This document shows positions 13,805 to 62,561 of a stretch of DNA of 64,000 nucleotides, piece by piece. The notes beneath the pieces were generated by a model. That model was given only the letters and a program-made list of their open reading frames with translations, was not told the DNA's origin and did not search any database. Where the stretch lies: IMG/VR virus record IMGVR_UViG_2636415425_000001, positions 47,083 to 111,082 of that record. One strand, given 5' to 3'. The DNA is from a virus (Duplodnaviria; Caudoviricetes). The translations under genes were made by a program, and so were the position numbers. Positions within the stretch are counted from its first letter, which is position 1, and each line of letters opens with the position of its first letter.

Positions 13805-13877
13805 GCGCGGCTGCCCCGACTACGACTGATTTCCCATCACCCCCTCGGCTACGGCCGATTTGAAAGGAGAATTACCC

Positions 13878-14524: not shown

Positions 14525-14560
14525 CACCCGGATACGATCGATTTTGAAAGGAGACCGAGC

Positions 14561-24153: not shown

Positions 24154-24503
24154 GCCGGCTCCTTCCGTCGCCGGCGCGGCGCGTCCTCGGCGCCGAATGC
24201 CGCCTTGATCGTCACATCCGCTTGGATGCGCTCCCAAAGCGCATTGCAGGCAGCCGCTGCTCTATCCCACGCGTTTCCGAACTTTTGGAGCTTCGGCGAC
24301 CGAGCGATCGCGTTCTGCCGCCTCTCCCATCGGCGCTCAAACCACCGCGCGCGCTTGCGTAACTGCTTGTGGCGGTCGCGCATGGCTTGGTCGCCCATCC
24401 GCCAATGGCGGCCGCACATTATCTTCACGCCTTCGGCATCGCCGGCCTCGCGCTTGAAGGTCCGCCCGCAGCCCGGGATGCAGCACCTGATGCGTTCCGT
24501 CAT
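24150..24503 (-). CDS. Zn-binding hypothetical protein
   Basis: CCIPGC...MCGRHW. Confidence 0.7.
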   Translation of the reverse strand: MTERIRCCIPGCGRTFKREAGDAEGVKIMCGRHWRMGDQAMRDRHKQLRKRARWFERRWERRQNAIARSPKLQKFGNAWDRAAAACNALWERIQADVTIKAAFGAEDAPRRRRKEPA

Positions 24504-31120: not shown

Positions 31121-31305
31121 GCCCCACCTTCAATGATGAGGACACGAACCGGCGACGTCTCGCGGCGCCATTCCGAGCGGCCGTCGATGGCGATCCAGCG
31201 GCGCTCAAGCCGAACGCCGAAAAGTCGCGGCGCCAGCCGATATTCGGCCGTCGGCGCCCATCCGCGATTATCCCAATCCGGCGGTGGCGGCAGATACACC
31301 TTCAT
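31117..31305 (-). CDS. Hypothetical protein
   Basis: Coupled to neighbours. Confidence 0.5.
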   Translation of the reverse strand: MKVYLPPPPDWDNRGWAPTAEYRLAPRLFGVRLERRWIAIDGRSEWRRETSPVRVLIIEGGA

Positions 31306-31925
31306 GCCGGCACCTCGATCGCGTCGAAAAGCGGGGTCGCCGAGGCCTGCTTCTCCGTCTTGCGGCGTGGCGGCACCCTGGCGCCGACTTCGATGGTGCC
31401 AACCTCGTCCCCCCAGTGCGTGAAGCCCTCATGGTTCTCGCGGGAGAACAGACACAGCCTCTCCAGGCCGGGCGTCTTTTCCCGGAGATGCTCGTACCAT
31501 TCGACCGGCTTCTGACTGTGTCCCCGAGCTTTGCCCTTGATCTCGCCGTAGAGCGCGTCGTGGATCTGGTGCTCATCACCGAACACGCCGAGCAAGACCG
31601 ACTCGTGCATGCCGCGCGACCGATACCCGGTGCCCATGCGCCCCTTCGGCCATACCAGTTCCGTCTTGAAGCGCGCGCCCCACTGCTCCAGGAGCCACAT
31701 CGACTTATTCAGCGTCGGCGGGCCTGCCCAAAGCGTGATGATGCCGTTGCCGCGGACGAGGTGACCGACAGGCAGATTGGCGAGATCCTCCCAGGACATG
31801 ATCTTGTATTGGGCGGACGCGGATTTCTTGTTGCCGCTCTCCGACCGCAGCTTGAACTCGGTCGGCGGATCGATGTCGACGACATCGAAACCAAACATCG
31901 GCAGCGGCTCGAAGAACCAGCTCAC
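31302..31925 (-). CDS. MT-A70-family methyltransferase
   Basis: IDPPTEF, GTGYRSR, HESVLLG, HSQKP, LFSRE...WGDE. Confidence 0.85.
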   Translation of the reverse strand: MSWFFEPLPMFGFDVVDIDPPTEFKLRSESGNKKSASAQYKIMSWEDLANLPVGHLVRGNGIITLWAGPPTLNKSMWLLEQWGARFKTELVWPKGRMGTGYRSRGMHESVLLGVFGDEHQIHDALYGEIKGKARGHSQKPVEWYEHLREKTPGLERLCLFSRENHEGFTHWGDEVGTIEVGARVPPRRKTEKQASATPLFDAIEVPA

Positions 31926-32749
31926 AGCCCGCACATCCCTTCGCAATCGTTGTTGAAGAGATCCGGCTGGCCACGCTCTTCGCTCGTCGAGAAGTCGACC
32001 TGGTCGAGCGGCTTCATTGAACGGTGCAGGTACGGCTTCAGCCGTAAGTGCCGTGAATAGCCGGACTCCGGCGAGCGGATTGCGTGGTCGACCTCGACTG
32101 CCTGTTGCCATCCGGCTGGATCGCGGTTGCGCAAATCACGCCATTGATGGTCGCTGCGATACGGACAGAACGTACATGCGCTTTTCGGTGGTTCCGGATA
32201 ACCGTTCCGGCGCAGCCACTGCAGGCAATCCCATCGGGACATGCGCTTTTCGATCAGCGGCCAGCGGTTCACCTGCCACGCATTGCGCGCAGGCTTCATC
32301 CGGACCGCCTCATCGGTTGAGATGCCGATCCAGACTTCCATGCTTGCCGCTGGAATGCGCTTGCGCGGGGCGAAGCCAAGCAACTCGCGCTGCTTCTTCA
32401 AAAGCGGCTCAATCTTGTATTCCTTGGTGCACTGTCGGCGGCCGAGCCCGTCCTCACCATTTCCTCGATCGAGGAAGGCCGGGATGGCCGCATACCGACG
32501 CTTTCCGCCGCCGTTGGTGCCCGCGAACAACGCCGTGTGCAGGGCCTCTGGCTTGCGCGTGGTGTGGACCGGAAAGGGCAGGACGTTAGGCGACATCAGC
32601 CAGCGGAGATGTTCATAAACGGGTGCTGGCTCGCTTCCGGTGTCCGCGAATATCGCGGCATCCGGCATCGGTCCGATTTCGCCATGCGCCGCCATCAGCG
32701 CCATAGTGGTGCTCTGGACGCCGGCACCGAGGGAGATGACGCGCATCAT
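31922..32749 (-). CDS. PAPS-reductase/PP-loop-like phage protein
   Basis: ISLGAGVQST, IFADTG, RQCTKEYKI, IGISTDE, KSACTFCPY. Confidence 0.75.
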   Translation of the reverse strand: MMRVISLGAGVQSTTMALMAAHGEIGPMPDAAIFADTGSEPAPVYEHLRWLMSPNVLPFPVHTTRKPEALHTALFAGTNGGGKRRYAAIPAFLDRGNGEDGLGRRQCTKEYKIEPLLKKQRELLGFAPRKRIPAASMEVWIGISTDEAVRMKPARNAWQVNRWPLIEKRMSRWDCLQWLRRNGYPEPPKSACTFCPYRSDHQWRDLRNRDPAGWQQAVEVDHAIRSPESGYSRHLRLKPYLHRSMKPLDQVDFSTSEERGQPDLFNNDCEGMCGL

Positions 32750-38140: not shown

Positions 38141-38198
38141 CTGGAATTTATTTCCAGTTTTTTATTGACATGTCCCCGCGTCTGGAATTATCTTCCAG
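38141..38198 (+). promoter_or_regulatory. Repressor-controlled early promoter with two operators
   Basis: CTGGAATTTATTTCCAG 38141-38157; CTGGAATTATCTTCCAG 38182-38198; TTGACA 38165, TATCTT 38189. Confidence 0.8.
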
Positions 38199-39290: not shown

Positions 39291-39367
<77 letters not shown>

Positions 39368-46087: not shown

Positions 46088-46491
46088 CCATCCTCGATCG
46101 CCCGCCGTCGGACTGGAAGCGGCCGGCTATGCCCGTCCGCACCAAGCTGGACGTCGTCATCCGACAGGAAGGCAAGTGCAAGCAGACCGGCGAGAAGCTC
46201 GGCACGCTCGAAAACACCCGGTTTGATCACCGCCCGGCCCTCTGGGAGCGACAGTTCGACACCGTGGCGGACGACACGATCCCGCCGGCGAACGACGCCG
46301 CATTCATTGATGCGTGCACGGTCGCCGGCCACGACGTCCGAACCCATGGGAACGGCGCCACGACCGTCGGCTCCGACTCCCATCGTCGCGCGAAGATCAA
46401 GCGGATGACCGATCCCAAGCCGGCAAAGCCGAAGCGGAAGATCCGCGGGCGGTCGACCTTCCCAAAACGAAAGGTCCGGAGGTTTGGATGA
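46084..46491 (+). CDS. HNH-like nuclease
   Basis: FDHRPAL...CTVAGHDVRT. Confidence 0.6.
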   Translation: MTILDRPPSDWKRPAMPVRTKLDVVIRQEGKCKQTGEKLGTLENTRFDHRPALWERQFDTVADDTIPPANDAAFIDACTVAGHDVRTHGNGATTVGSDSHRRAKIKRMTDPKPAKPKRKIRGRSTFPKRKVRRFG

Positions 46492-47081
46492 ATTCGGCAG
46501 CATCAGCATCCCTTGAATTCAGCACGTTGGCTGAGTTGTCGGCCCACTATCGTCAGGTCCGAGCTCGGTTGCCGGTTGTGGTCCCGCAGTGGCAGCGCGA
46601 CACGCTGGCGCTGCCCCCGGGTCTTCTCCGCCTGCCGGCGCCGGCCGCCTTCGCGACCGTCGAGGATATCGTTCCGTCGCAGTTGAGACGGGCGCCGGAG
46701 GAAGTTCGGAAGTTGAGCGGCGAAGCCGAGCGCGTGGCGATCCGCAGGTCGATCGCCGCATACCGCGCCCTGCTTTGCCAAATGCCGGCGAACCAGCGCC
46801 GGGTCAATTTGATCAAGGCTGCGGTCGGTCGCGCTTTCAAGGTCAGCCAGGACGGCTTCACGCACCATTCACGCCGACACGGCGTGACGCGCATCCGGCA
46901 GATCGCGATGTGCCTCTCGAAGCTGCTGACCACGACCAGCCACAACGAGATCGGCCGCAGTTTCGGCGGTCGCGACCACACCACGGTGCTGCACGCCTAC
47001 CGCAAGTTTCTGCCGATCGTCGCCGAGGTCATGGCCGAGATGAACGACGGTCAACCCTGCCAGATCGGGGGCCAACTATGA
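46488..47081 (+). CDS. DnaA C-terminal (domain IV) HTH protein
   Basis: RQIAM...EIGRSFGGRDHTTVLHA. Confidence 0.85.
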   Translation: MNSAASASLEFSTLAELSAHYRQVRARLPVVVPQWQRDTLALPPGLLRLPAPAAFATVEDIVPSQLRRAPEEVRKLSGEAERVAIRRSIAAYRALLCQMPANQRRVNLIKAAVGRAFKVSQDGFTHHSRRHGVTRIRQIAMCLSKLLTTTSHNEIGRSFGGRDHTTVLHAYRKFLPIVAEVMAEMNDGQPCQIGGQL

Positions 47082-47920
47082 CGATGACCGACGGATATTT
47101 CGCCGATCAGCCGATCGTGCCTGGCGCCGACGTCATCTATCGGCCGAAGGGCAACGCCGGTGAGTACGCGCCGCTGGCGACGAACCCCTATCGAGGCTGC
47201 GGACACGGCTGCGCCTATTGCTACGTTCCGCCGGCGACGCATATCCCGCGGCTGACTTTCGACCAGGGCGCAGTACCGCGACCTGGGTTCATGCAGCGGC
47301 TCGACCGCGATATCCGACGCTATCAGGCCGCCGGCGTCTCCGACGGTCACCCCGCCGATCAGATCTTCATCACGTTCTCCAGCGACCCGTTCCACCGCGG
47401 CGACCTCTCCCTGACTCGGCAAACAATGCATGCTCTCAAGGAAGGCGGCATGTCGTTCTGCACTTTGTCCAAGGGTGGACGTCGTGCGCTATCGTTCCTG
47501 CCGGAATACCGCCGCGAGCGGGACGCTTACGCCTGCACGCTGACAACGTTGGACGATGAGTTCTCGCAGACATGGGAGCGCAATGCGGCGTTGCCCGGCG
47601 AGCGGATCGCCGTGCTGGAGACCTTCCACCAGGCCGGCATTTTCACTTGGGTGTCGCTCGAACCGACGCTCGATGCCGCAGCTTCGGTTGCGATCGTCCG
47701 GGCAACGTACAGGTTCGTGGATCTCTACAAGATCGGGCGCGCCAACTACGTCCCCAAGATCTCCAAGACGATCGATTGGGCGGCATACACCCGCGACGTG
47801 ACTCAGGCGTGCCGCGAGGTCGGCGCGCGCCATTACGTGAAGCGCGACCTGCAAGCCCATTTGCCACCTGGTTATGACAACCCCCTGCGCGTTCCGCAGC
47901 ATCATGGAGCCACGGCATGA
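47078..47920 (+). CDS. Radical SAM protein (SPL-like)
   Basis: NPYRGCGHGCAYCY (CxxxCxxC), SSDPF, WVSLEP. Confidence 0.85.
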   Translation: MTMTDGYFADQPIVPGADVIYRPKGNAGEYAPLATNPYRGCGHGCAYCYVPPATHIPRLTFDQGAVPRPGFMQRLDRDIRRYQAAGVSDGHPADQIFITFSSDPFHRGDLSLTRQTMHALKEGGMSFCTLSKGGRRALSFLPEYRRERDAYACTLTTLDDEFSQTWERNAALPGERIAVLETFHQAGIFTWVSLEPTLDAAASVAIVRATYRFVDLYKIGRANYVPKISKTIDWAAYTRDVTQACREVGARHYVKRDLQAHLPPGYDNPLRVPQHHGATA

Positions 47921-48561
47921 AGCCCGAGTTCATCACCTTCACCGGTATCGACAACTGGACCGAGCTCCACGACATCCACGTCCTCTCGATCAAGTACCCT
48001 GTCGAGTTCGGTGTCTTGTTCAGCCCAAAGCGCCAGGGCACCGATCCGCGCTATCCCGACGGCGACGCGCTGTCCCGCTTCATGTGGAGCGGGCTCCGGC
48101 TGTCAGCGCACCTCTGCGGCGACTACAGCCGCCGGATCATGGCAGGCGAGTCCATCGTCGACACCATCCCGGTCGACCTCGGGTACCTGAACCGGGTTCA
48201 GGTGAACCACGCCGAGCCGGATCCGGCGAAGATCATCGAATTTCGCAACGGCTGGGGATCGATGCGCGCGATCGCGCAGACCCGCGCCGATGCGTTCCCG
48301 GCCGACACCTCCGTGGACTGGCTCTTTGATCGCAGCGGCGGCACCGGCGTCGCGCCGACGGCCTGGCCGATGCATCCCGGCGGCGATCGGCTGGTTGGTT
48401 ACGCCGGCGGCATCTCGCCCGACAACATCCGCGGCGTCATGTCGGTGCTCGAGCAGATGCCAGGTCGATACTGGATCGACATGGAAAGCGGAGTCCGGAC
48501 CGACGACCGGTTCGACATCGCAAAGTGCCGTGCCGTTTGCGAGGCGGTGTTCGGCAAATGA
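47917..48561 (+). CDS. TrpF/PRAI-like TIM-barrel protein
   Basis: LFDRSGGTG, GYAGGISPDN, WIDMESGVR. Confidence 0.7.
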   Translation: MKPEFITFTGIDNWTELHDIHVLSIKYPVEFGVLFSPKRQGTDPRYPDGDALSRFMWSGLRLSAHLCGDYSRRIMAGESIVDTIPVDLGYLNRVQVNHAEPDPAKIIEFRNGWGSMRAIAQTRADAFPADTSVDWLFDRSGGTGVAPTAWPMHPGGDRLVGYAGGISPDNIRGVMSVLEQMPGRYWIDMESGVRTDDRFDIAKCRAVCEAVFGK

Positions 48562-49274
48562 GGGACGTTCCGGTAATCTTTAGCGCCCCGATGGTGCAGT
48601 CCCTGCTTCGCGAAGTTGAAGCGCCGGGGACCGGCAAGACCATGACGCGGCGCCTCGCTTGGGGCGAGCCGTTCACCGTCTACGACGACGAAGACGGCGA
48701 ACAGGCGGCGAAGCTCCGAAAGAAGGGCTGCAAGGTCAGCGGTCCGGACGATACTTCCGCGCGTATCGCTTGGCCCCCGTCACCGTGGCAGCGCGTGAAG
48801 GCTGGCGACCGCCTCTGGGTGCGCGAGTCCGTCAAGGGCGAACCGAACGCAGAGGGATGGGACGGCGTCCGCTACGCCGCCGACAATGCCTGGATCATGT
48901 CGACGGCGGCGAACGCCGAAGAGGCCGACGAATTCGTCGCTCTTTACCGTTACGGCGGCAAGCGCGGCGCGAGCGTTCCTTCGATCCATATGCCGCGTTG
49001 GGTCTCCCGTATCACGCTGATCGTCACCGCGACGAAGATCGAGCGGCTGACCACGATCACCGAGGCTGATGCCATCGCCGAAGGTGTCGAGCACCGCGGC
49101 GAGCGCGACTACTGGGCCGGGCTCAACCGCGGGACCGATGCCGTTGCTTGCTTCTCCGCGCTCTGGCGGTCGCTACACGGTATGGGCTCGTGGGACAAGA
49201 ACCCCGAGGTCGTCGCCCTCACCTTCAAAGTCATCAAAGCCAACATCGATAAGCCGGAGGCTCGTGCAGCATGA
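48558..49274 (+). CDS. ASCH/PUA-like phage protein
   Basis: IFSAPMV, GKTMTRR, GDRLWVRE, PSIHMPRW. Confidence 0.75.
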   Translation: MRDVPVIFSAPMVQSLLREVEAPGTGKTMTRRLAWGEPFTVYDDEDGEQAAKLRKKGCKVSGPDDTSARIAWPPSPWQRVKAGDRLWVRESVKGEPNAEGWDGVRYAADNAWIMSTAANAEEADEFVALYRYGGKRGASVPSIHMPRWVSRITLIVTATKIERLTTITEADAIAEGVEHRGERDYWAGLNRGTDAVACFSALWRSLHGMGSWDKNPEVVALTFKVIKANIDKPEARAA

Positions 49275-49753
49275 CAGACACCGCTCCCATCTGCTGCGGC
49301 ATCGCCACCCGCCTGACGACCGGAAAAGAGATCTATCCGCATCGGCGCGACCTGCATTGGAAGCACTTCTACAAGTGCGACCGCTGCGGCAAATATTGCG
49401 GCTGCCATCCCGGCACCACGAAGAGCCTCGGCACGCCGGCAGATGCCGCCACCCGCGCAGCGCGATCGAACCTGCACGACAACGTCTTCGATCCGATCTG
49501 GAAGAGCGCGGTGACGACAGGCCAATACGATCCCGAGGACCACAAAGCGAAGACCAGGATCCTGAAGGCGGCTCGGTCCCGGCTCTACCGCTACCTGGCG
49601 CACCACCTCGGTATCGATCGCGATGCCTGCCACTTCGGCATGTTCACGCTCGAGCAGTGCAAGCGCGCGACCGAGATCCTGAGCGGACTGTCCTATCGGA
49701 CGGTTCGGGATTGGCACTATGCGCGGGTCAAGCAGGAAGGCAAAGCGGCATGA
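49271..49753 (+). CDS. DUF3268-like zinc-finger protein
   Basis: EIYPHR, CDRC..YCGCHPGT, CHFGMF. Confidence 0.75.
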   Translation: MTDTAPICCGIATRLTTGKEIYPHRRDLHWKHFYKCDRCGKYCGCHPGTTKSLGTPADAATRAARSNLHDNVFDPIWKSAVTTGQYDPEDHKAKTRILKAARSRLYRYLAHHLGIDRDACHFGMFTLEQCKRATEILSGLSYRTVRDWHYARVKQEGKAA

Positions 49754-50605: not shown

Positions 50606-51433
50606 ATGCGCAAGACCGTTAAAGCAGATCTCATCATCATCGACCCCCAGAACGACTTCATGGACCAGAAGGGGGCAGCGCTGCCGGTTGCCGGCGCCGT
50701 CGCCGACATGACGCGCGTCGCCGGTGTCGTGAAGCGGATCGGCCGGCGGCTGAATGACATCCACGTCACGCTGGACTCGCACCGCGTCATCGACGTTGCG
50801 CATCCTGGGTTCTGGCGCGGTGCCGACGGCAAGCACCCTGCCCCGTTCACCATGATCACCAACGCCGACATCAAGTCGGGCATGTGGGAGCCGCGCAACC
50901 ACACGCTCCGCAGGCGCATGCTGGACTACACCGCCGCGCTCGAGGCGGCCGGCAAGTTCGTTCTCATGATCTGGCCGGAACACTGCATCATCGGCAGCTG
51001 GGGCCACAACGTCGTCGACGTCCTTCGCGACGAGCTCGCCGCCTGGGAGCGCGACAACTTCGCCACGATCGATTTCGTCACGAAGGGCACCAACACCTTC
51101 ACGGAGCACTACGGAGCTCTGATGGCTGAGGTGCCGGATCCCGCCGATCCCTCGACCCAGTTGAACGGTGGCTTCCTCAGCGTGCTGCAGGAAGCCGACG
51201 TCATCGGCATCGCCGGCGAGGCATCCTCGCACTGCGTCGCCACCACGATCCGGCAGATCGTCGACAACATCGGCGACGACCACCTTCGCAAGATCCACAT
51301 CTTGACGGACTGCATGTCGCCGGTCCCGCAGACGCCCGGCGGACCCGACTTCCCGGCGATCGCGCAGCAGTTCCTGAAGGACATGGAAGCGCGCGGGCTC
51401 GTCCTCACGACGTCCGACGCCTTCCTGGCCTGA
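50606..51433 (+). CDS. Nicotinamidase/isochorismatase-family cysteine hydrolase
   Basis: IIDPQNDF, TLDSH, WPEHC, TKG, GEASSHCV (Asp-Lys-Cys triad plus metal ligands). Confidence 0.9.
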   Translation: MRKTVKADLIIIDPQNDFMDQKGAALPVAGAVADMTRVAGVVKRIGRRLNDIHVTLDSHRVIDVAHPGFWRGADGKHPAPFTMITNADIKSGMWEPRNHTLRRRMLDYTAALEAAGKFVLMIWPEHCIIGSWGHNVVDVLRDELAAWERDNFATIDFVTKGTNTFTEHYGALMAEVPDPADPSTQLNGGFLSVLQEADVIGIAGEASSHCVATTIRQIVDNIGDDHLRKIHILTDCMSPVPQTPGGPDFPAIAQQFLKDMEARGLVLTTSDAFLA

Positions 51434-51472
51434 TTCCACGACACCACCCTCGAATTCCCGAAAGGAGCCACA

Positions 51473-52222
51473 ATGCCCCGTCTCGACGGAACTGACATCG
51501 AAACCCACAACCTCGGCGGCAACTTCTCATTCACCGGTGCCCGTATCGCAGGGCTCGGCGCCACCGAGTACACCCTGGTCGATATCGAAGTCGACATGAG
51601 CGGATCGGTCTCGCCGTTCCTCAGCGACCTGATCGCCATGATCAAGGCGTCGGTCGAGGCCTGCCGGAAATCGCCACGGTCGGAAAACCTGCTGGTCCGC
51701 GTCGCGGCATTCAGCAGTTCGTATCCTGGCGGCATCAACGAGGTGCATGGTTTCATCCCGTTGGCCAGCGTCGACCAGACCGCATATGACCGGCTCAGCG
51801 CCGGCGGCGGAACGCCGCTCTTCGACGCCTGCTACGTCGGCGTCGGCGCCGCGAATGCCTATGCGAAGATGCTCTTCGACCAGGAATTCAACGCCAACGG
51901 CATCAGCTTCTTCATCACCGACGGCGAGGACACCGGCGGCGCCGCATCACCGGCCATGATCAAGGCCGAGATCGCGCGGGCGACGAAGGAAGAATTCCTC
52001 GAGAGCCACGTCAGCATCCTGATCGGGATCAATGCCGCCGCCTGCACCGCGGCGCTCGGCCGGTTCCAGAAGGAAGCCGGCATCACCCAGTACATCGACG
52101 CCGGCGACGTCACCAAAGGCAAGCTGGCCAAGTTGGCGGCCTTTGTCTCGCAGTCGGTTTCGAGCACGTCGCAGGCGCTCGGCACCGGCGGTCCCAGCCA
52201 AGCCATCGCGGCCACGATCTGA
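51473..52222 (+). CDS. vWA domain protein (TerY/YegL-like)
   Basis: MIDAS DMSGS, GGTPLFDA, ITDGED. Confidence 0.88.
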   Translation: MPRLDGTDIETHNLGGNFSFTGARIAGLGATEYTLVDIEVDMSGSVSPFLSDLIAMIKASVEACRKSPRSENLLVRVAAFSSSYPGGINEVHGFIPLASVDQTAYDRLSAGGGTPLFDACYVGVGAANAYAKMLFDQEFNANGISFFITDGEDTGGAASPAMIKAEIARATKEEFLESHVSILIGINAAACTAALGRFQKEAGITQYIDAGDVTKGKLAKLAAFVSQSVSSTSQALGTGGPSQAIAATI

Positions 52223-52245
52223 TCCCAGCCGCCGCGGAGAACATC

Positions 52246-53064
52246 ATGCGCTTCACAGTTGACCACTCCTTTCATATCGGATCGCAGCATCTCCGCGGCG
52301 GCATGCCGTGCCAGGACTACGCGCTGTCGCACACCGACAGCGACTTCTTTGCGGCCGCCATAATCTCTGACGGCTGCTCAAGCGGCGGAAAGACGGACGT
52401 TGGATCTCGCGTGGTCGCCCACTCGACGCTCACGGCCATCATAGAGAACCCGCATCTGGATGAGAGGTCGATCGATCGTCACTGCCACGACCGCGATCGT
52501 CGCGCGATGATGGCTCTTTGCCTCAAGCCCGAAGACATGCTGGCAACCAGCCTCTACATCGCGATCTGGGGTGACCGCGCCATCTCGCGCGTTGTCGGCG
52601 ACGGCGTGATTGCTGCAGTCCATCGCGATGGGCGGCTGGTTATGAACAAGATCGACTGGGCAAACAACATGCCCGTCTATCGGGCCTACGAGCGGCGCGA
52701 CAACTATCGGGATTTCATTTCCGCTCACGGTGGTCCGGACGCCCTTGGGTTCTCCCAGCATGTGGTCTCCTGGGACGGTGAGTTTAGCCTTCCACACCCG
52801 GTCGAGGCCGGGCTCGTCGGCACCAGCATTGATCATGATCTGCAGATGTTCAGGCTCATCGCCGTCTTCTCCGACGGCGTGACGCAGGTCGACGGCATGG
52901 ACTGGCGCGAAGTCGTCACCCAGCTGATGTCCTTCAAGTCGACCGGTGGCGCCTTTGTGAAGCGCCGCATGCTGCGGTTCCTCAAGGACTGCCAGGCGCA
53001 CGGCAAAGGCCCGATCGACGATATCGCCATGGCCTGCATCCACATCGACCACGAGGCCGAGTGA
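52246..53064 (+). CDS. PP2C-family phosphatase (YegK-like)
   Basis: GSQH...PCQD, SDGCSS, VGDG, FSDGV, DDIA. Confidence 0.88.
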   Translation: MRFTVDHSFHIGSQHLRGGMPCQDYALSHTDSDFFAAAIISDGCSSGGKTDVGSRVVAHSTLTAIIENPHLDERSIDRHCHDRDRRAMMALCLKPEDMLATSLYIAIWGDRAISRVVGDGVIAAVHRDGRLVMNKIDWANNMPVYRAYERRDNYRDFISAHGGPDALGFSQHVVSWDGEFSLPHPVEAGLVGTSIDHDLQMFRLIAVFSDGVTQVDGMDWREVVTQLMSFKSTGGAFVKRRMLRFLKDCQAHGKGPIDDIAMACIHIDHEAE

Positions 53065-53447
53065 TGGGCGCGACCTATTTCCAAGACTTTACCCGCGACA
53101 ACGGTTACCCCGTGACGGTCGAGTACGGCTATTCGCCGGGCAGCGAAACGACCTATTCGCCGATGCACGGCGCCTGCGGTGGCGCCCCCTGCGAAATCCA
53201 GATCGTCTCGTCCATGCCCAACACGCCGGCATTCGAGCGCTTCAGCGGGATCTACAACCATCTTCGCTGGGGCCGGCGCCAGGCCTGGCAGCGCCCAGCG
53301 TTCGAGCTTGCTGCCGCCATTGTCCGCCTTTGCCGATGGATCTGGGAGTTTCGCGCCCGCCTTTCGACCGAGGAGCGAGAGCGCATGGAGGAATGGCTCG
53401 CCGAGCACCACGTCTACGAACCCTATGAGCCGGAGGACTGCAACTGA
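53064..53447 (+). CDS. Hypothetical protein
   Basis: Coupled between the PP2C and kinase genes. Confidence 0.55.
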   Translation: MGATYFQDFTRDNGYPVTVEYGYSPGSETTYSPMHGACGGAPCEIQIVSSMPNTPAFERFSGIYNHLRWGRRQAWQRPAFELAAAIVRLCRWIWEFRARLSTEERERMEEWLAEHHVYEPYEPEDCN

Positions 53448-55192
53448 TGGCGCGCAGGGGCACGATCAACGTCCACCTCGAGGGCCGCGGCGCGATGACG
53501 CTGCGCGAGGCCAATTACGTCACTTCCGGCGGCGAAGGCTCGATCTACCGGACCGGCAAGACCATCGTGAAGCTCTACACCGACGCCGACAAGATGGCGC
53601 GCGACGGCATGCCGGAGAAGGTGAAGGCGCTGGCCAGCCTGAAGCATGCCGGCATCGTGGCGCCGCAAGGACTGGTGCTGGATGACTCGAGGAAGCCGGT
53701 CGGCTTCTACATGCCGTTCGTCGACGGCGAGCCGATGTCGCGGGTATTCGTGTCGGATTACCGGGTGCGGACCGGTTTCGCGGATGGCGACGCCGTCGCG
53801 CTGACGCAGTCCATGTACGAGATCGTCGAATATGCCCACAGCCAGAAGGCAGTGCTGGTCGACGCGAACGAGCTCAATTGGCTGGTCGGCTTCCGGAAGG
53901 GTGCCGCGGCGACCGCCTCGGTGATCGACGTCGATTCCTGGGCGATCGGCCGCTGGGGCGCCTCGGTCATCATGCCGTCCATCCGCGACTGGCACGCCTC
54001 CTCGTTCGATGCTCAGACGGATTGGTTCGCGTGGGGCATCGTGGCGTTCCAAGTCTTCACCGGCATCCACCCCTACAAGGGTCGGATCGAAGGCTATAAG
54101 CCTGCCGATCTCGTCCAGAGGATGAAGGACAACGCGTCGGTCTTCGACAAGCGGGCCAAGATGCCGCTGTCGGTCCGCGACTTTGCCTGCATCCCTGGCC
54201 CGCTGCTGGACTGGTTCCAGACCACGTTCCAACTCGGCAAGCGCGGGACGCCGCCGGCGCCGACGGCAAAGGGCAAGCCGGCGAAGGCGGCGCAGATCAT
54301 GCGGGCCGTCACGACGGCGACCGGCGGCGCGCTGGTGTTCGAGAAGGTGTTCGCGCGTGGCGGCTGGCATGTCACGCGGGTCTGGGCGAACGGCGCCGCC
54401 CGGCTGACGTCCGGCGAAGTCGTCGACCTCTCGACTGGCGGCGCGATCGCGCACCAGGTGCCGGCGGACGCCGAGGTCATCAAGGTCCCAGAGGGTTGGG
54501 TCATTTCGCTCCCGACCCAGAACGAGATCCTTTTCGCGCACATCCCGTTCGAGATGGTCGGCGGCGCCGGCGGCCGCAGGTTTGCCGATCAGCCGGTACC
54601 GCTCCGCCGCGTCTTCCGCGCCGGCGAGACGCTATTCGGCGTCACCGACCGCGAGTTGATTGAGCTCGAGCTCAACGATGTCGGCGGCCGGCCGCGCATG
54701 ATCATGGATCGGCGCTGGAACATGCTGGTCGGCGCCACGACCTGGTTGGATGACGTCGCCGTTACCGACGCGCTCGGCAACGCCTTCGTGGTGCTCCCGC
54801 ATGCCGGCGGCATCTCGCAGATCCGGGTGCCGGAGCTCGACGGCGGGACAATAGTCTCAGGCAAGGCCGCAGGTCGCTTCGCCGCCTTCGCTGTCATCAG
54901 CGGACAAGGAAACTTCTACCGCATCGAACTGACGTTCGATCGCACCTTCACGACCTATCAGGTGTGGACCGGGCCGGTCGACAGCGCCGAGCTCAACATG
55001 GCCATCCTGCCGCGTGGGGTCGCTGCCACCATCACCAATGACTTCGAGATCACGATCTTCGTCCCGACCACGGGCGTCATGAACAAGGTCCGCGACACCG
55101 GCGTCAGCACCGCGATGAAACTGGCGGCCTGGGGCGAGCGCATCGTCTACCTGATCGACGGCGCCGTCTGGCAGATGAGGATGGCACCATGA
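53447..55192 (+). CDS. Ser/Thr protein kinase (YegI-like) with an unrecognised C-terminal domain
   Basis: SGGEGSIY, VKLY, GFYMP, LVDANELN, IDVDS, TDWFAW, GIHPY. Confidence 0.88.
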   Translation: MARRGTINVHLEGRGAMTLREANYVTSGGEGSIYRTGKTIVKLYTDADKMARDGMPEKVKALASLKHAGIVAPQGLVLDDSRKPVGFYMPFVDGEPMSRVFVSDYRVRTGFADGDAVALTQSMYEIVEYAHSQKAVLVDANELNWLVGFRKGAAATASVIDVDSWAIGRWGASVIMPSIRDWHASSFDAQTDWFAWGIVAFQVFTGIHPYKGRIEGYKPADLVQRMKDNASVFDKRAKMPLSVRDFACIPGPLLDWFQTTFQLGKRGTPPAPTAKGKPAKAAQIMRAVTTATGGALVFEKVFARGGWHVTRVWANGAARLTSGEVVDLSTGGAIAHQVPADAEVIKVPEGWVISLPTQNEILFAHIPFEMVGGAGGRRFADQPVPLRRVFRAGETLFGVTDRELIELELNDVGGRPRMIMDRRWNMLVGATTWLDDVAVTDALGNAFVVLPHAGGISQIRVPELDGGTIVSGKAAGRFAAFAVISGQGNFYRIELTFDRTFTTYQVWTGPVDSAELNMAILPRGVAATITNDFEITIFVPTTGVMNKVRDTGVSTAMKLAAWGERIVYLIDGAVWQMRMAP

Positions 55193-55515
55193 CCGCCGGC
55201 CGCGCTTGGGTGAAAGACCGGCTCGCCGCGATCCGATCGCTGGACGAGACCACGTTTCAGAAGTTCATGACCAAGTGGAACATGCCGCAGCCGCGACAGT
55301 GGTTGCCGCAGGCCCGGCTCGTTCTCATGCACAAGATGCGGTGTGATGCCGGCATCGTCGGGTTGACCGAGGAAGAACGCCAAGCCTCTCGGGACTGGCT
55401 GAAGCAGAACGGCTACAGCGAGTCGACCGCTCAACCCGGCGGCTGTCCTGCCTGCGGACACATCGGCCCATCGTTCACCGACTGCCCGACCTGCGGAATG
55501 GGAGCGAAGCAATGA
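55189..55515 (+). CDS. Hypothetical protein with C-terminal Zn ribbon
   Basis: CPAC...CPTC. Confidence 0.6.
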   Translation: MTAGRAWVKDRLAAIRSLDETTFQKFMTKWNMPQPRQWLPQARLVLMHKMRCDAGIVGLTEEERQASRDWLKQNGYSESTAQPGGCPACGHIGPSFTDCPTCGMGAKQ

Positions 55516-56252
55516 CGGCACCGCTTTTCGCTGGCATGGGCGCCCATCAGACACCGCGGCGCAATCGCACCGACAACTGGCTGACGCCGCCCTGGCTGCT
55601 GCGCATGCTCGGCGGCTGGGAAGCGTACGACTTGGATCCGAGCGCGATGGTCGACCAGCCGTGGCCGACGGCCCGCCGGCACTACACCATCAACGACAAC
55701 GGCCTGCTGCTGCCGTGGGAAGGCGACGTCTGGCTGAACCCGCCCTATCTCCGCGGGCTGCTCGGTCGCTTCATGGCGAGAATGGCCGCGCACGGTCGCG
55801 GCATCGCGCTGATCTTCGCCCGCACGGAGACGTCGACCTTTTTCCGCTACGTCTGGGAGCGCGCCACCGCGGTCTTGTTCCCGCGCGGTCGGATCGACTT
55901 CTGCACCCCGGACGGCGGCACCGCCGGCGACTCCGGCGCGCCCTCCGTTCTCTGCGCCTATGGCGATCGGCACGCCGAGGTGCTCGCCGCCGTCGATCCC
56001 GACTTCGGTCAATTCCTGCCGCTGCGGCTGCCGCGGAGCGTCGCGGTCCTGGCGCTGGCGACGACCTGGCGCGAGGCGATCGTCGATTGGCTGCGCGCGC
56101 AGCGCGGTCCCGTCGCCCTCGCCGAAATCTACCGCGCCTTCGCGTCTCACCCGAAGGCGGCCACCAACCCGAATTACCAGGCCAAGATCCGGCAGGTGCT
56201 CCAGCTGGGCGCCGGCGTTCGGGTCGGTCGCGGACAATGGAGCGCAGCTTGA
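55512..56252 (+). CDS. Phage Dam-type N6-adenine methyltransferase
   Basis: WLTPP, DLDP, VWLNPPY, FARTET. Confidence 0.88.
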   Translation: MTAPLFAGMGAHQTPRRNRTDNWLTPPWLLRMLGGWEAYDLDPSAMVDQPWPTARRHYTINDNGLLLPWEGDVWLNPPYLRGLLGRFMARMAAHGRGIALIFARTETSTFFRYVWERATAVLFPRGRIDFCTPDGGTAGDSGAPSVLCAYGDRHAEVLAAVDPDFGQFLPLRLPRSVAVLALATTWREAIVDWLRAQRGPVALAEIYRAFASHPKAATNPNYQAKIRQVLQLGAGVRVGRGQWSAA

Positions 56253-56661: not shown

Positions 56662-57579
56662 ATGATCATTCGCCCGTGCGATGTTGAGACAACCGGTCTC
56701 GAGGCCTCCGACGAGGTAATCGAGATCGGCTTCACTGACCTCCGGAATGTCAGCGATATCTGGGGGCTGTCGACGGTCAGCAAGCAGACATTCATCCGTC
56801 CTGCCCGGCCGATCCCGCCCGAGTCGTCGGGCATTCACCACATCACGGATGACGACGTAAAGGACGCGCCGTCCTGGGCGGACGGATGGCGCATGCTAGT
56901 CGAGACACCGAACGACGACGGCAAGATCATCTTTGCCGCACATGCCGCGTACTACGAGCGGCAATATCTCGATCACCTGATCCAGGCCGATTGGATCTGC
57001 ACCTGGAAGTGCAGTCTCCGGCAATGGCCGGAGCTCGCGAGCCACAAGCTGCAGGCGCTGCGCTATGCGCTGAACTTGCCGACCGACCCAGAGCGCGCCT
57101 CACCGCCGCACCGTGCCGCGCCGGACTCCTATGTCTGCGGTTTGGTGTTGCTCGAGCTGCTGGAGCATCAGACCGTTGAGACGCTCCTGCTGTGGTCCTC
57201 CGAGCCCGCCGTTTTCACGAAGTTCGATTTCGGTCAGTTCGACGGCAAGCCGCTGTCCGCCGCCGACGACGGCTATCTCGATTGGCTCGCCAACAAAGAC
57301 CATAAGATGGGCGAGGACTGGCGCTGGAACGCGCGCCGCGAGATCGAACGGCGACTGATCGTAAAGCGCAAGCAGGCGCTGGATCTCCTGCTGCCCGCGA
57401 TCGCCGGCGCAGCCACCGTCACGGACCTCGAGAATTGGTACCACGGGTCGGCGGAGTACCTGGCCAAGCACGGCATCATCATCGGATCGACCGACTATCA
57501 ATCGCTGATCTCGGCCTGTGCGGCACGGAAGAAGGTGTTGATCGAGGGCGGCCAGCCGCAGTTCGGCGGCACGCAGTGA
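56662..57579 (+). CDS. DEDDh 3'-5' exonuclease (ExoX-like)
   Basis: DVETTG, IEIG, IHHIT, HRAAPD. Confidence 0.85.
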   Translation: MIIRPCDVETTGLEASDEVIEIGFTDLRNVSDIWGLSTVSKQTFIRPARPIPPESSGIHHITDDDVKDAPSWADGWRMLVETPNDDGKIIFAAHAAYYERQYLDHLIQADWICTWKCSLRQWPELASHKLQALRYALNLPTDPERASPPHRAAPDSYVCGLVLLELLEHQTVETLLLWSSEPAVFTKFDFGQFDGKPLSAADDGYLDWLANKDHKMGEDWRWNARREIERRLIVKRKQALDLLLPAIAGAATVTDLENWYHGSAEYLAKHGIIIGSTDYQSLISACAARKKVLIEGGQPQFGGTQ

Positions 57580-58154
57580 ACGCCGCCCTCCACAATCCCG
57601 GCGGCAAGGTCAAGCTGCGGCTCGCCGACGGTGTCGGTGGCGACGCCATGTTCTGGGGCGAGAACGACTGCTACCGCCCGATCCTGACTCGCAAGTGGGT
57701 AAACCTGTTCACCGCCGAGACCAGGCTGCCGAACAATTTCGTGCTCTGGATCGGGATGAACCCGTCGACCGCCGACGCATCATTCGATGATCCGACCCTG
57801 AACAAGGTGATCGACTTCTCCATGGCGTGGGATTTCGACGGCCTCGCCATGATGAACGTCTGCGATTACCGGGCGACCGATCCGAAGCATTTACTGAAGG
57901 ACGGCGTCGCGCCGCGGAGCAAAGGCAACCTGCCGCTGATACGCGATACCGCAAAGCAAGCCGCCAAGGTCGTCGCGGCTTGGGGCAACCTCGACCGTCG
58001 GCTGGCGCATTTCGCGGTGGATACCGAAGACGCATTGCGCCGGGACGGAATCGAAATGTGGTGCCTTGGCCTCAACAAAGGCGGCACGCCGAAACACCCG
58101 CTCTACGTCCGCGGCGACACCCCCCTCGTTCGATTTAAGGAGATTCCTGTATGA
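57576..58154 (+). CDS. DUF1643-family protein
   Basis: IGMNPSTAD...DDPT, RATDP, AAWG, PKHPLY. Confidence 0.85.
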   Translation: MNAALHNPGGKVKLRLADGVGGDAMFWGENDCYRPILTRKWVNLFTAETRLPNNFVLWIGMNPSTADASFDDPTLNKVIDFSMAWDFDGLAMMNVCDYRATDPKHLLKDGVAPRSKGNLPLIRDTAKQAAKVVAAWGNLDRRLAHFAVDTEDALRRDGIEMWCLGLNKGGTPKHPLYVRGDTPLVRFKEIPV

Positions 58155-59905
58155 CGTTCGCATTCCCGCGCGCCGTGTTGGAGCAGCACACCGCTTTCCT
58201 GGGTAAGACCGGCTCGGGCAAGACATCGACCGCGAAGCTAGCCGTCGAGCAGATCCTCGCCGCCAACCCGTCGGCTCGAGTCTGCGTCCTGGATCCGATC
58301 AAGTCGGACTGGTGGGGCCTCACCTCGAGTGGCGACGGCCGGCAGCCGGGCCTGCCGTTCTACATCCTCGGCGGCCCGCGCGGTCACGTCGCGCTCCACG
58401 AATCCGCCGGCAAGGCGATCGGCGAGCTCGTCGCCACCGGCGATCTGCCGCTGTCCATCATCGACATGGCGGACTTCAGCGCCGGCGGCCTCCAGAAATT
58501 CTTCAACGACTTCGCCCCTGCCCTCATGAAGCGGATGCGCGGCGTCGTCTATCTCGTCCTTGAGGAGGCGCACGAGTTCGCGCCGAAGGAGCGTGCCGGC
58601 ATCGGCGCCGAAACCATGGCGATCCACAACGCCAAGAAGCTGGCCACCGCGGGCCGGTCGAAGGGCATCCGCCTGATGGTGGTGACCCAGCGCACCCAGG
58701 CGCTGCACAACGCCGTGCTCGGCAGTTGCGACACCATGATCGCGCACCGCCTCACGGCGCCGGCCGATCAGGATCCAGTCAAGAAGTGGCTGAAGGGCAA
58801 TGTCGACAAGGCGGTCTTCGAGCGCGTGTCGTCATCCCTGGCTTCCCTGAAGACCGGCACCGGCTGGATGTGCTCCGGCGAGGCGCAGGTCGCCGACCTG
58901 GTGCAGTTTCCGAAGATCTCGACCTTCGACAATTCCGCGACGCCGACCGACGGCGACGCCGAATTTCAGGTCACCACTGCACCGGTCGATCGCGACCGGT
59001 TGCGCGCCATCATCGGCGACGTCGTGAAGCAGGCTGAGGAGAATGACGTCCCGCGGCTGCGGGCCGAGATCACGCGGCTGACCGCCGAGTTGGCGAAAGG
59101 CGCACCAGCGCCAGCCGCTGGCGCCGCCCGGGAGGAGATCGACGCCGCATATCAGGAAGGGCTGTGGGACGGTCTGCATCCCTTCCTCGACCTATTCGAG
59201 GACTTCAAGGTGATCGGCGCGGGCGTACAGAACCTGCTCGCCCGTGTCGGAGAGGTGCAAGCAAAACACAAAAGCGCTGTGGACCACGCTCCCGCGCATG
59301 CGCGCGAATTGCGCAACCACCGCTCTTTGCTGAAGCCGGCCTCGCCTTCCCTGGCGGCCCCTCCCCGCGCGGCGGCGCTGCCGGCGCCGCCTCCTCGGCC
59401 AACGACGGCGGCGAGCGGTGATGGGAGCCTCTCGCCTTCGCTGCAGAATGCCCTCAACGCGATCGCTTGGTGGCACAAGATCGGCCACGCCTCCATCGAA
59501 CGCGCGCGGGCCTGCGTCGTCGCGGGATTGAGTCCAAAGGCTTCCACGTTTGGAGTCTATCTCGCCGAATTGGCAAAGCGCGGACTCGTCACGACCGCGG
59601 TGCCAGGGAAAGTGTCGCTGACCGATGCCGGGCGGCAAAAAGCAGTGTTCCCAGCGGCGACATCGGCCGCGGATCTGCGCGCGGCAGCGGACTCACTCCT
59701 CAGCGGCCAAGAACGCAGGGCCTTCGACGTCGTCTATCGCGCCTACCCAGGATCAATCGCGCGCAAGTCGGTCGCGGAAGCGATGGGCTTGTCGCCGAGC
59801 GCAAGTACCACAGGCGTCTACCTCGCCGCCGTCGCCGGGTACGGCATCATCGTGAACGCCGGACCCGGCGAGGTCCGCGCGGCAGACTGGCTGTTTACGA
59901 CATAG
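58151..59905 (+). CDS. HerA-like ATPase with C-terminal winged helices
   Basis: GKTGSGKT, VLDP, LEEAHEF, GRSKGI, VTQR; C-terminal LAKRGLV...SLTDAGR. Confidence 0.82.
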   Translation: MTFAFPRAVLEQHTAFLGKTGSGKTSTAKLAVEQILAANPSARVCVLDPIKSDWWGLTSSGDGRQPGLPFYILGGPRGHVALHESAGKAIGELVATGDLPLSIIDMADFSAGGLQKFFNDFAPALMKRMRGVVYLVLEEAHEFAPKERAGIGAETMAIHNAKKLATAGRSKGIRLMVVTQRTQALHNAVLGSCDTMIAHRLTAPADQDPVKKWLKGNVDKAVFERVSSSLASLKTGTGWMCSGEAQVADLVQFPKISTFDNSATPTDGDAEFQVTTAPVDRDRLRAIIGDVVKQAEENDVPRLRAEITRLTAELAKGAPAPAAGAAREEIDAAYQEGLWDGLHPFLDLFEDFKVIGAGVQNLLARVGEVQAKHKSAVDHAPAHARELRNHRSLLKPASPSLAAPPRAAALPAPPPRPTTAASGDGSLSPSLQNALNAIAWWHKIGHASIERARACVVAGLSPKASTFGVYLAELAKRGLVTTAVPGKVSLTDAGRQKAVFPAATSAADLRAAADSLLSGQERRAFDVVYRAYPGSIARKSVAEAMGLSPSASTTGVYLAAVAGYGIIVNAGPGEVRAADWLFTT

Positions 59906-60917: not shown

Positions 60918-61261
60918 CCGAAGCACGGAACGAAAGCACCGAGGCGCTCCGCGGCGCCGATATCCGCTTCCGGGTCGACCCCGGCGACGTGCCGCCTGAG
61001 AAGGCCGCCCGCCGGCTGCACCTGACGCTCGACCGGTTCAACGAATTGCTGCCCAACCTGCTGAAGCGCGGCTTCCCTCCGGCCGATCCGGACACCGGCA
61101 TGTATAGCCTTGAGGCGATCGACGAGTGGAGAAAGGTGCGGGATGGGCTCAAATCGCCATTGACGGGCGCCAGCCATCCTCCCCAGGCTAACCAGCCGGC
61201 GGACAAGCCGATGTCGATGGGAGAGCGCTTTGCGGCCAAGAAGCGGAGCAGGCATGGTTGA
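60914..61261 (+). CDS. Probable excisionase
   Basis: AARRL...RGFPPAD...AIDEW; directly upstream of int. Confidence 0.7.
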   Translation: MTEARNESTEALRGADIRFRVDPGDVPPEKAARRLHLTLDRFNELLPNLLKRGFPPADPDTGMYSLEAIDEWRKVRDGLKSPLTGASHPPQANQPADKPMSMGERFAAKKRSRHG

Positions 61262-62561
61262 TCTGCCCAAATACGTCCATGGCGAGAAAAAGGCCAGCGG
61301 CCGCAGGTACTTCGCCTACCAGCGGTTCCGCGGGACACCGAAGGCATGGCCGCGGGTACCCCTCCCGGCGGATCCGCTCAGCGTCGAATTTGTGACCCGC
61401 GCCAAGCTATGCGAGCGGCTGGTCGCTTCGAAGGATGAGACCGGCTGGACGTGGAAGTTCATGGACGATGCCGGCAGCCCCCACGTTCTTCCGTCTCCCG
61501 ACGATCCGAACACGTTCTGGGCAGCTGTAGAAAAGGCTGTCGAGGTCGCAAAGCAGATAGCCTCCGGCGAGCGGAGAACGTTCCGGGCACTCATCACCGA
61601 GTTCAAAGCGAGCGCGGCCTATAAGCTGAGAGGCAGCGTCGACGATGGCAACGCGGCTGCGCCGGCGGAGGAGCCCATTCCGACGCGGCCCGGTGCGAAG
61701 CGCAAGCCCGGCAAGCGCAGCACCGGAGGGCTCTCCAAGTCGACACGGGATCAGTACGCCCGCCATTTCCGAGAGATCGAAGATAACTGGGCCGATGATC
61801 CTGTCCGCGATCTGACCACGGTGGACGTGCAGCAGGCGATCGATGCCTTCAGCGATCTCGGCCAGCCGTCGGCCGGGCGTGCCTTCCGCGCCACCCTGTC
61901 GCGCCTGATCGACTGGGGAATTCCCCGGGGCTATTCGGAAACGAATGTCGTCGAGAAGACGGAAAAGCCGCGCGAGGACGGAACTTACGAGCCGTGGGCG
62001 CCGTGGGCTTTCGAGCACTTCTTCAAGCACGCGAGGCTCGGTCTTCACCTGCCTGTTTATTCAGGGCTTTTTACCGGCCAGCGCATCAGCGATATCGTCC
62101 AGATGCGACGACCGCAGGACGGCGTCACCGAGATGCCGATCATCGCCCAGAAGACCAATGCAATCGTGCCGGTCCAGATCCACTCCGAGTACCGCGCCAT
62201 CATCAAGGCCACAGGCCAGACGCACGAGATGCTGCACCTACGCGAAGATGGCGAGCCATGGACCTATGAGGGTTTCAAGACGGCGTGGCAGCGGGAGATG
62301 AACCGAGACGTCTTCAAGCGATTCCGGGAAGAGCGAGTCGTCTTCCACGGCACCCGCAAGAACGCCGTTAACAACCTCCTCGAGGTCGGCTGCTCGGAAG
62401 CGCTGGTCGCCGCGATCGTGAAGATGAGCCCGGCGATGGTGCACCACTATTCGAAGCGGGTGAACCAGTTCCGACTGGCTCGGGCCGCGATGAAGCAGTT
62501 CGAGGCCGGCTGGGCTGAGCTCCGGCCGCACGTCCTGGGCAACCTGAAGGCGGCCACATGA
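61254..62561 (+). CDS. int: Tyrosine integrase
   Basis: TGQRISD (R), QKT (K), FHGTRK (HxxR), HHYS (Y). Confidence 0.93.
   Translation: MVDLPKYVHGEKKASGRRYFAYQRFRGTPKAWPRVPLPADPLSVEFVTRAKLCERLVASKDETGWTWKFMDDAGSPHVLPSPDDPNTFWAAVEKAVEVAKQIASGERRTFRALITEFKASAAYKLRGSVDDGNAAAPAEEPIPTRPGAKRKPGKRSTGGLSKSTRDQYARHFREIEDNWADDPVRDLTTVDVQQAIDAFSDLGQPSAGRAFRATLSRLIDWGIPRGYSETNVVEKTEKPREDGTYEPWAPWAFEHFFKHARLGLHLPVYSGLFTGQRISDIVQMRRPQDGVTEMPIIAQKTNAIVPVQIHSEYRAIIKATGQTHEMLHLREDGEPWTYEGFKTAWQREMNRDVFKRFREERVVFHGTRKNAVNNLLEVGCSEALVAAIVKMSPAMVHHYSKRVNQFRLARAAMKQFEAGWAELRPHVLGNLKAAT

Follow-up and report, generated by a model that had tools for sequence, protein, structure and literature searches.

The 64,000-nucleotide stretch of viral DNA analysed here (IMG/VR record IMGVR_UViG_2636415425_000001, positions 47,083 to 111,082), hereafter the window, carries a cassette at 50606-55192 in which a nicotinamidase-type hydrolase is followed by a von Willebrand factor A (vWA) protein, a PP2C-type phosphatase, a short accessory open reading frame (ORF) and a Ser/Thr kinase. 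With moderate confidence, we read the cassette as the prophage copy of a widespread, self-contained module, in which a divergent nicotinamidase is hard-wired to a vWA-PP2C-kinase switch and would feed the nicotinamide adenine dinucleotide (NAD+) salvage of the host. The window corresponds to G000:C1:78661-142660, part of an 8.27-Mb genome in 36 contigs, and is phage DNA almost throughout.

In the ORF list of the window, five plus-strand ORFs tile the interval, with successive spacings of 39 bp, 23 bp, a 4-bp overlap and a 1-bp overlap. The cassette begins 27 bp from the upstream gene, and 4-bp overlaps occur with the next two genes downstream. The first ORF (50606..51433, 275 amino acids) encodes a divergent nicotinamidase-type hydrolase, PncA-like and of the isochorismatase fold, and the second (51473..52222, 249 amino acids) a vWA-domain protein with a metal ion-dependent adhesion site (MIDAS) motif and a Ser-rich C-terminal tail. 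These are followed by the PP2C-type Ser/Thr phosphatase (52246..53064, 272 amino acids), the accessory ORF (53061..53447, 128 amino acids, no known family) and the 581-residue kinase protein (53447..55192). The latter is divided into a Ser/Thr protein kinase domain (residues 1-270; 53447..54256) and a C-terminal all-beta domain (residues 284-581; 54296..55192), which is predicted to be a beta-propeller. GC content at third codon positions (GC3) lies between 0.79 and 0.90 for the cassette ORFs, which fits the coding sequence of the host genome.

The genes travel together far beyond the window. The kinase has more than 755 full-length relatives, the NCBI-named ones including metagenome-assembled genomes of Patescibacteria, Parcubacteria and Paceibacterota at ~45% identity, and its alignment was used to fetch 22 IMG/VR and 80 metagenome loci. 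After removal of five exact duplicates there were 103 kinase-seeded loci, in which several near-identical pairs are still counted. Where at least 2800 bp of upstream sequence is available, the hydrolase, vWA and PP2C genes precede the kinase on the same strand and in the same order in 64 of 69 loci, and 53 of these 64 are compact, with a span of 3 kb or less. Among the exceptions, L015 and L019 have PP2C alone upstream of the kinase, and coordinate arithmetic places a hydrolase and a vWA gene ~9 kb away on the L015 contig (L122). In L018 the hydrolase and vWA genes lie downstream of the kinase, and L027 and L028 show 25% identity in the N-terminal part of the kinase. A search of IMG/VR seeded with the hydrolase gave 197 relatives, of which 80 were kept (some of their contigs overlap with the kinase-seeded set). 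All four genes are present in 67 of the 76 loci with at least 4.5 kb of downstream sequence, and the hydrolase stands alone in none of the 76. Conservation of the four-gene order, which had been proposed for checking from the sequence alone, is therefore seen across genomes, and the hydrolase is found beside the triad whether the search starts from the kinase or from the hydrolase. The same sequence-only reading had regarded a leading hydrolase as unusual, a view that does not stand, as the hydrolase precedes the triad as a rule of the family. Chance adjacency of the four genes was also considered, and is ruled out by the conservation counts.

Closer to the window, five related prophage loci retain the cassette at 53-95% identity, and close copies occur in the named strains Ai1a-2, Leo170 and B. 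cenepequi. Three genomes deposited in GenBank as ‘uncultured phage’, 462-595 kb in size, carry the hydrolase and the kinase and are the only GenBank phage records matched by both, with all four genes present in LR745208.1. Among named, cultured phages in GenBank, tblastn (E ≤ 1e-10) matched none with both hydrolase and kinase, and blastn of the locus against GenBank phages gave a 170-bp match only. Terminase_6N was found in one of five cassette-bearing IMG/VR records, although a single Pfam family cannot settle the phage status of the other four.

Nicotinamidases are characterized by an Asp-Lys-Cys catalytic triad, an Asp/His/His metal site and a WPxHC motif. An AlphaFold2 (AF2) model of the cassette hydrolase has a pLDDT (predicted local distance difference test) score of 93.8, and in a Foldseek search of this model against the Protein Data Bank (PDB) ranks 1-12 are all nicotinamidases (E 2.9e-14 to 1.9e-9; target-normalised template modelling score 0.52-0.81), with Pnc1 (3v8e, E 2.9e-14) as the best match. 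The assignment of the gene as nicotinamidase-like, made earlier from the letters of the sequence, is thereby supported at the level of the fold. Residues D13, K160, C210, D57, H59 and the segment W123-x-x-H126-C127 are invariant in the family alignment (n = 28), and phmmer aligns the WPxHC segment with that of Pnc1 (2h0r). From the structures of Pnc1 and PncA, we take D13, K160 and C210 to be the catalytic triad, and D57, H59 and H126 to be the metal site that holds the pyridine nitrogen. Because these residues are invariant within a nicotinamidase fold, free nicotinamide is probably the substrate of the enzyme. The hydrolase appears to represent a separate, longer nicotinamidase subfamily that falls below the curated cut-offs. 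This family comprises 1348 cluster representatives at E ≤ 1e-30 and, in the metagenome loci, is better conserved (52-65% identity) than the kinase (36-47%) or PP2C (29-43%). Among the representatives P0157, P0162, P0233 and P0174, some measure 520-626 amino acids and carry the hydrolase C-terminally, and another, of 1629 amino acids, contains five matched stretches. These over-long proteins may be fusions or gene-calling run-throughs.

The genes that surround distant cassettes point to NAD+ metabolism. Flanking ORFs were clustered and their representatives checked with Pfam, and the recurrent neighbors are NrtR (NUDIX plus NrtR_WHD), NAPRTase (PncB), a NadD-like adenylyltransferase, NAD synthase, NAD kinase and, at times, a canonical PncA. 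At least one NAD salvage gene is found in 41 of the 54 loci with at least 5 kb of flank (32/36 metagenome, 9/13 IMG/VR and 0/5 Bradyrhizobium-type loci). The ‘NAD kinase’ BLAST cluster 14 is not uniform, as its L105 member is a GNAT protein by Pfam, and counts of NadK were given no weight. The order in L046 is NrtR, cassette, NadD-like gene, PncB, NAD kinase and NadE, followed by SOD and UvrB, in a cellular setting of 39% GC. In cellular genomes the module lies within NAD salvage operons and not in defence islands, and the link to NAD+ metabolism that the sequence-only reading had suggested is strongly supported by the metagenome loci. Canonical PncA is missing nearby in 49 of the 54 loci, and the cassette hydrolase would therefore fill the PncA step. 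Such loci resemble NrtR-regulated Preiss-Handler operons (pncA-pncB-nadD-nadE), in that NrtR, PncB, NadD and NadE adjoin the cassette and the hydrolase replaces PncA. They differ in that the nicotinamidase is of a distinct, longer subfamily and that three signalling genes are inserted after it, while the cassette of the window lacks both NrtR and the other genes of the pathway. Two further observations come from individual loci. In L100, an ADP-ribosylglycohydrolase gene (13542-14603; PF03747, E 1.6e-52) lies between PncB and NadE in the cassette operon, a further link to ADP-ribose turnover. In L108, on a metagenome contig of 1.1 Mb, the cassette has a plasmid RepA_C gene (897-1925, minus strand) 3.5 kb upstream, which hints at a mobile setting there as well.

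We also placed the window in a tree of 133 hydrolase sequences (FastTree, midpoint-rooted), where it forms a clade with the Bradyrhizobium-type loci (support 0.999). The clade in turn branches within 24 metagenome sequences (support 0.975), away from the 77 IMG/VR sequences. The topology suggests that the prophage cassette was acquired from the type found in NAD operons, in a tree whose root is not established.

The vWA, PP2C and kinase genes have features that would suit a phosphorylation switch. Invariant positions of the vWA family (n = 27) are T114, D150 and, within the D41-x-S43-x-S45 motif, D41 and S45; S43 is mostly Ser. The Ser-rich C-terminal tail, FVSQSISSQSQALGTGGPSQ, is strikingly conserved in the family alignment. 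Pfam VWA is matched by 8 of the 27 family members (best E 4.1e-8). The protein of the window taken alone has no match in Pfam, PADLOC, NCBIfam or PHROGs, and neither single-sequence nor profile searches of PDB sequences gave anything significant. PP2C exceeds the Pfam cut-off (PP2C_2, E 9.5e-15), and its metal-binding residues D24, D42-G43, D119-G120, D210-G211 and D258-D259 are invariant (n = 26). In the kinase, K42, D139, N141 and D163 are invariant and N144 nearly so (n = 21); alignment to MLK1 places D139 at the HRD Asp, N144 at the catalytic-loop Asn and D163 at the DFG Asp, and the domain aligns with PknB (1mru) at a VIA-align Z of 18.4. The sequence-only reading was therefore accurate on the layout of five co-oriented ORFs with gaps of 39 bp or less, and on the intact catalytic motifs of the hydrolase, vWA protein, PP2C and kinase.

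A closer look at the C-terminal 298 residues of the kinase protein shows 29 beta strands in the AF2 model, with pLDDT of 80-93 in most 10-residue blocks. This part had been described as beta-rich and unrecognised; the former holds, with a confidently modelled fold, while the latter does not, as the domain is predicted to be a beta-propeller, for which the strand count would suggest about seven blades. Foldseek places the kinase-WD40 half of LRRK2 on top and also matches the Nup133 propeller (6x04, E 4.3e-8). In a structural alignment, LRRK2 (6vno) covers residues 12-579. The ESM Atlas gave no usable match for the propeller part. The likeness to LRRK2, a kinase domain followed directly by a beta-propeller, is one of fold only. 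Identity is 11-14%, ROC-COR and LRR domains are absent from the cassette kinase, and we make no claim of homology that goes further than the two folds.

The E. coli locus annotated yegL-pphC-yegJ-yegI offers the nearest named counterpart. Here too, vWA, PP2C (PphC, also YegK) and Ser/Thr kinase genes come in the same order, and both vWA proteins bear a Ser-rich C-terminal tail. Profile comparison with hhalign gives a probability of 65% for the vWA protein against YegL (E 5.8e-5, with the tail within the alignment), 94% for PP2C against PphC (E 1.4e-7), and 97% for the kinase against YegI (E 5.7e-11 over 194 columns, a value that has no comparison with other kinases as a control). Unlike the cassette, the E. 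coli locus has yegJ between pphC and yegI. As far as the accessible text goes, TerY-P is described as a set of three proteins, TerY-like vWA, PP2C and a Ser/Thr kinase with a C-terminal zinc ribbon in the form linked to CoCoNuT systems (PMC11090510), and forms fused to an oligonucleotide binding (OB) fold as stand-alone antiphage defences (Gao 2020 as cited in PMC11090510). The relationship of the triad to TerY-P and to YegL-PphC-YegI, which the sequence-only reading had recognised, is upheld by the shared order and by the profile matches, of which that of the vWA protein is weak. In contrast to the TerY-P forms described in those parts of the source, the cassette triad is always preceded by a nicotinamidase-type hydrolase, its kinase ends in a predicted beta-propeller rather than a zinc ribbon or OB fold, and its partners are NAD salvage genes rather than restriction, DNA-processing or tellurite systems. 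The cassette triad thus appears to be a relative of TerY-P that is set apart as a variant, and not a member. PADLOC gave weak matches of the kinase to mad6 (E 6.2e-6) and PD-T4-6. It gave no match for the hydrolase, vWA protein or PP2C and none of the TerY type, a result that is uninformative since E. coli YegL and PphC were missed too.

The accessory ORF between phosphatase and kinase was rightly noted as present in the cassette, but it does not appear to be part of the module. Among the loci compared, it is confined to the Bradyrhizobium-type loci L002, L003 and L005, and it is missing from L006, where the kinase is 93% identical, and from every distant locus; it is best described as a lineage-restricted insertion. 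Its GC3 is 0.81; Pfam, PHROGs, NCBIfam and PADLOC all gave nothing for it. Of its 36 homologues, those with a name come from Bradyrhizobium, Pseudolabrys and Mesorhizobium, all Hyphomicrobiales. The pairs P0129/P0021 and P0136/P0010, each a homologue of this ORF and of the kinase, have matching longest contigs (23022 and 25996), and the ORF may travel with the cassette down to ~60% kinase identity.

Taken together, these features would fit the following scheme. The hydrolase would convert free nicotinamide, the base freed by NAD+ cleavage, to nicotinate, as its fold and invariant active site suggest. Nicotinate would then enter the Preiss-Handler route (PncB, NadD, NadE), which cellular carriers encode in the same operon, whereas the prophage would borrow that of its host. 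On its other contigs, the host genome holds a NAPRTase, two canonical PncA genes and a single NrtR-type gene; with a NAPRTase in the host, the nicotinate product should therefore be usable there. The kinase and PP2C would act in opposition on a protein substrate, of which the Ser-rich vWA tail around residues 224-242 is the likeliest candidate, and we judge the case for such an antagonistic switch with this putative substrate to be about evenly balanced. The beta-propeller of the kinase may serve as a sensing or docking domain, and nicotinamidase output would be gated after translation. The benefit to the phage would be that NAD+ is kept or rebuilt during development, also when NADase-type defences cleave it. 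That the phage employs the module to maintain or restore NAD+ through the host PncB route is a serious possibility, if one we hold somewhat short of even, and a putative role in counter-defence is plausible. More tentatively, and with doubt prevailing, the whole may amount to post-translationally gated NAD+ recovery, in which the propeller kinase and PP2C toggle the vWA adaptor and the nicotinamidase is switched on upon NAD+ cleavage, making it a fourth, deamidating, phage-borne countermeasure that reconstitutes NAD+ by way of PncB, NadD and NadE of the host.

Three such countermeasures, NARP1, NARP2 and NARP3, have been named, with Nampt and Nmnat as the enzymes of NARP2. According to the accessible parts of the sources, NARP1 recycles ADP-ribose and nicotinamide by enzymes named Adps and Namat (PMC13586617), NARP2 takes nicotinamide through nicotinamide mononucleotide (10.1101/2024.02.11.579819; PMC13464706), and NARP3 consists of PnuC and a NadR-like enzyme (PMC13464706; 10.1101/2024.02.11.579819). 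The cassette resembles them as a set of phage-carried genes acting on NAD+ breakdown products, with nicotinamide as the shared metabolite. Unlike the cassette, NARP1-3 as described in those parts have no nicotinamidase or deamidated route and no kinase, phosphatase or vWA component, and none of the five cassette proteins matches the families of their defining enzymes in Pfam, PHROGs or NCBIfam. The paper on phage G mentions gp275 as PncA-like and of unknown function, and its accessible text contains none of the terms vWA, von Willebrand and PP2C; phage G is not among the tblastn matches at E ≤ 1e-10. Likewise, the words kinase and phosphatase are absent from the accessible text of the jumbo-phage NAD paper. 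In a literature search that covered the main texts of accessible papers, we found no published description of a nicotinamidase-vWA-PP2C-kinase module.

Several observations weigh against a gated nicotinamidase that feeds host salvage. The hydrolase scores under the cut-offs of Pfam PF00857 (Isochorismatase; 18.7 vs. 27 bits) and of the NCBIfam nicotinamidase model NF008623 (19.1 vs. 174 bits), and with its family-specific insert its substrate could differ. The match of the vWA protein to YegL is weak. Canonical PncA stands beside the cassette in 5 of the 54 well-flanked loci, and with two canonical PncA genes in the host a plain extra nicotinamidase looks redundant. The 42-64 kb flank of the window showed no cluster of NAD genes, and the window has no NrtR, the single NrtR-type gene of the host being on another contig. 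Among the 80 hydrolase-seeded viral loci, a NAD gene lies within 7 kb in 25 and in none of the other 55; because NAD genes are near so few viral loci, the four genes themselves appear to be the portable core, often carried bare by phages as in the window. Finally, the removal of nicotinamide could equally serve other ends.

One such end is signalling, in which the hydrolase would report on NAD+ cleavage by binding or turning over nicotinamide or a related amide, and the triad would relay the signal to targets such as replication or NAD-consuming enzymes. The tie between hydrolase family and triad is what this explanation would predict, with the hydrolase alone in none of 76 loci, and the presence of canonical PncA beside some cassettes and twice in the host suggests non-redundant functions; the hydrolase also has its own insert and is more conserved than the kinase and PP2C. 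Yet the invariant catalytic triad and metal site argue for turnover and not for binding alone, the cassette hydrolase is the sole PncA-type gene in most NAD operons, and no output target is evident, so that we regard signalling as unlikely. Another end is prophage defence or superinfection exclusion. Here the triad would sense an incoming phage and nicotinamide would be destroyed, deepening NAD+ depletion or starving the NARP1 and NARP2 pathways of rival phages, both of which use nicotinamide in the parts of the sources cited above. The kinship with YegL-PphC-YegI would suit such a role, given that TerY-P-like modules are reported in part of the literature as stand-alone antiphage systems (PMC11090510 citing Gao 2020), as would the weak PADLOC matches of the kinase and the rarity of a prophage-borne cassette in the genus, where a search of 150 other genomes turned up the kinase in one. 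We nevertheless consider defence more unlikely still. In 32 of 36 metagenome loci it is NAD biosynthesis genes and NrtR, and not defence genes, that adjoin the cassette, which is also present in genomes deposited as huge phages, the predicted propeller takes the place of the OB fold or zinc ribbon of TerY-P forms in the described part of that literature, and in the window the cassette lies among replication and recombination genes. That the cassette is inert or decaying cargo, horizontally acquired and without a role in the prophage, is very improbable: the missing NAD genes and NrtR, and the nesting of the prophage hydrolases in metagenome sequences of the NAD-operon type, which suggests acquisition, would agree with it, but the four frames are intact with invariant catalytic residues, GC3 matches the host, stop and start codons overlap neighboring genes, and the cassette has been retained over the five related prophage loci.

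The window places the cassette in a recognisable phage setting. TerL (559-2241) and a TerS-like gene (2441-2956) are encoded near its start, and the minus strand carries DnaB, a primase, a clamp-like gene and several DNA methyltransferases; related IMG/VR contigs measure 110-132 kb. The cassette lies within a long co-directional block of replication and recombination genes on the plus strand, from ~38 to 62.5 kb, and an ‘early’ timing is putative. Besides an SbcC-like ATPase, a PDDEXK exonuclease, a DnaA helix-turn-helix protein and a radical SAM gene, this block includes Dam, a DnaQ-like exonuclease, DUF1643 and a HerA-like ATPase; the integrase at 61230-62561 belongs to it as well. Shuffles contain promoter- and terminator-like sites at least as often as the real sequence between 37.5 and 57 kb, and a site at 38165-38194 is only a hint of where the block starts.

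Within the block, a gene with the DnaA C-terminal helix-turn-helix (PF08299, E 2.4e-20) lies at 46314-47081, and the radical SAM domain is in the C-terminal part of the product of 46589-47920, a few genes upstream of the cassette. The start of the next gene, a weak PRA-isomerase-like one (47917-48561; PF00697, E 6.5e-5), overlaps the radical SAM stop. Upstream of the cassette, the window has a DUF3268 zinc-finger gene (49271-49753); a gene of this family also occurs in L012 (9680-10108; IMG/VR record of 176 kb), directly downstream of the kinase. Beyond the cassette, 57435-59905 holds the DUF1643 gene and then a 584-residue HerA/FtsK-like ATPase (DUF87, HerA_C) with a weak PHROG terminase match, ~1.3 kb upstream of the integrase gene. 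PHROG matches identify five or more DNA methyltransferase-like genes (10871-13234, 20860-22179, 25311-27494, 31302-32111 and 55512-56252). A minus-strand gene at 23470-24237 matches the PHROG ‘queuine tRNA-ribosyltransferase’ (phrog_887, E 1.7e-31) and has no Pfam match; together with the methyltransferases, it suggests that the DNA of the prophage may be heavily modified. Two tRNA genes are also located inside the prophage, Pro(tgg) at 24189-24271 on the minus strand and Met(cat) at 39291-39367 on the plus strand. The tRNA-Pro overlaps two predicted ORFs, and one of these predictions may be wrong.

NAD+ depletion is a central battlefield of bacteria and phages, and the known phage countermeasures, NARP1-3, rebuild NAD+ without a nicotinamidase or a signalling layer as far as the accessible descriptions go. 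The module described here is abundant, with 1348 hydrolase cluster representatives and 197 viral relatives, yet its carriers are almost all uncultured. The bare core in a Bradyrhizobium prophage, with close copies in named strains, would allow direct testing of the enzyme, the switch and the effects on NAD+ and phage growth. If the switch controls the nicotinamidase, this would be a new regulatory principle for NAD salvage and would assign a function to one branch of the vWA-PP2C-kinase triads, which are poorly understood. If true, it would also be, within the literature searched, the first control of bacterial NAD salvage by Ser/Thr phosphorylation, common to candidate-phyla bacteria and giant phages.

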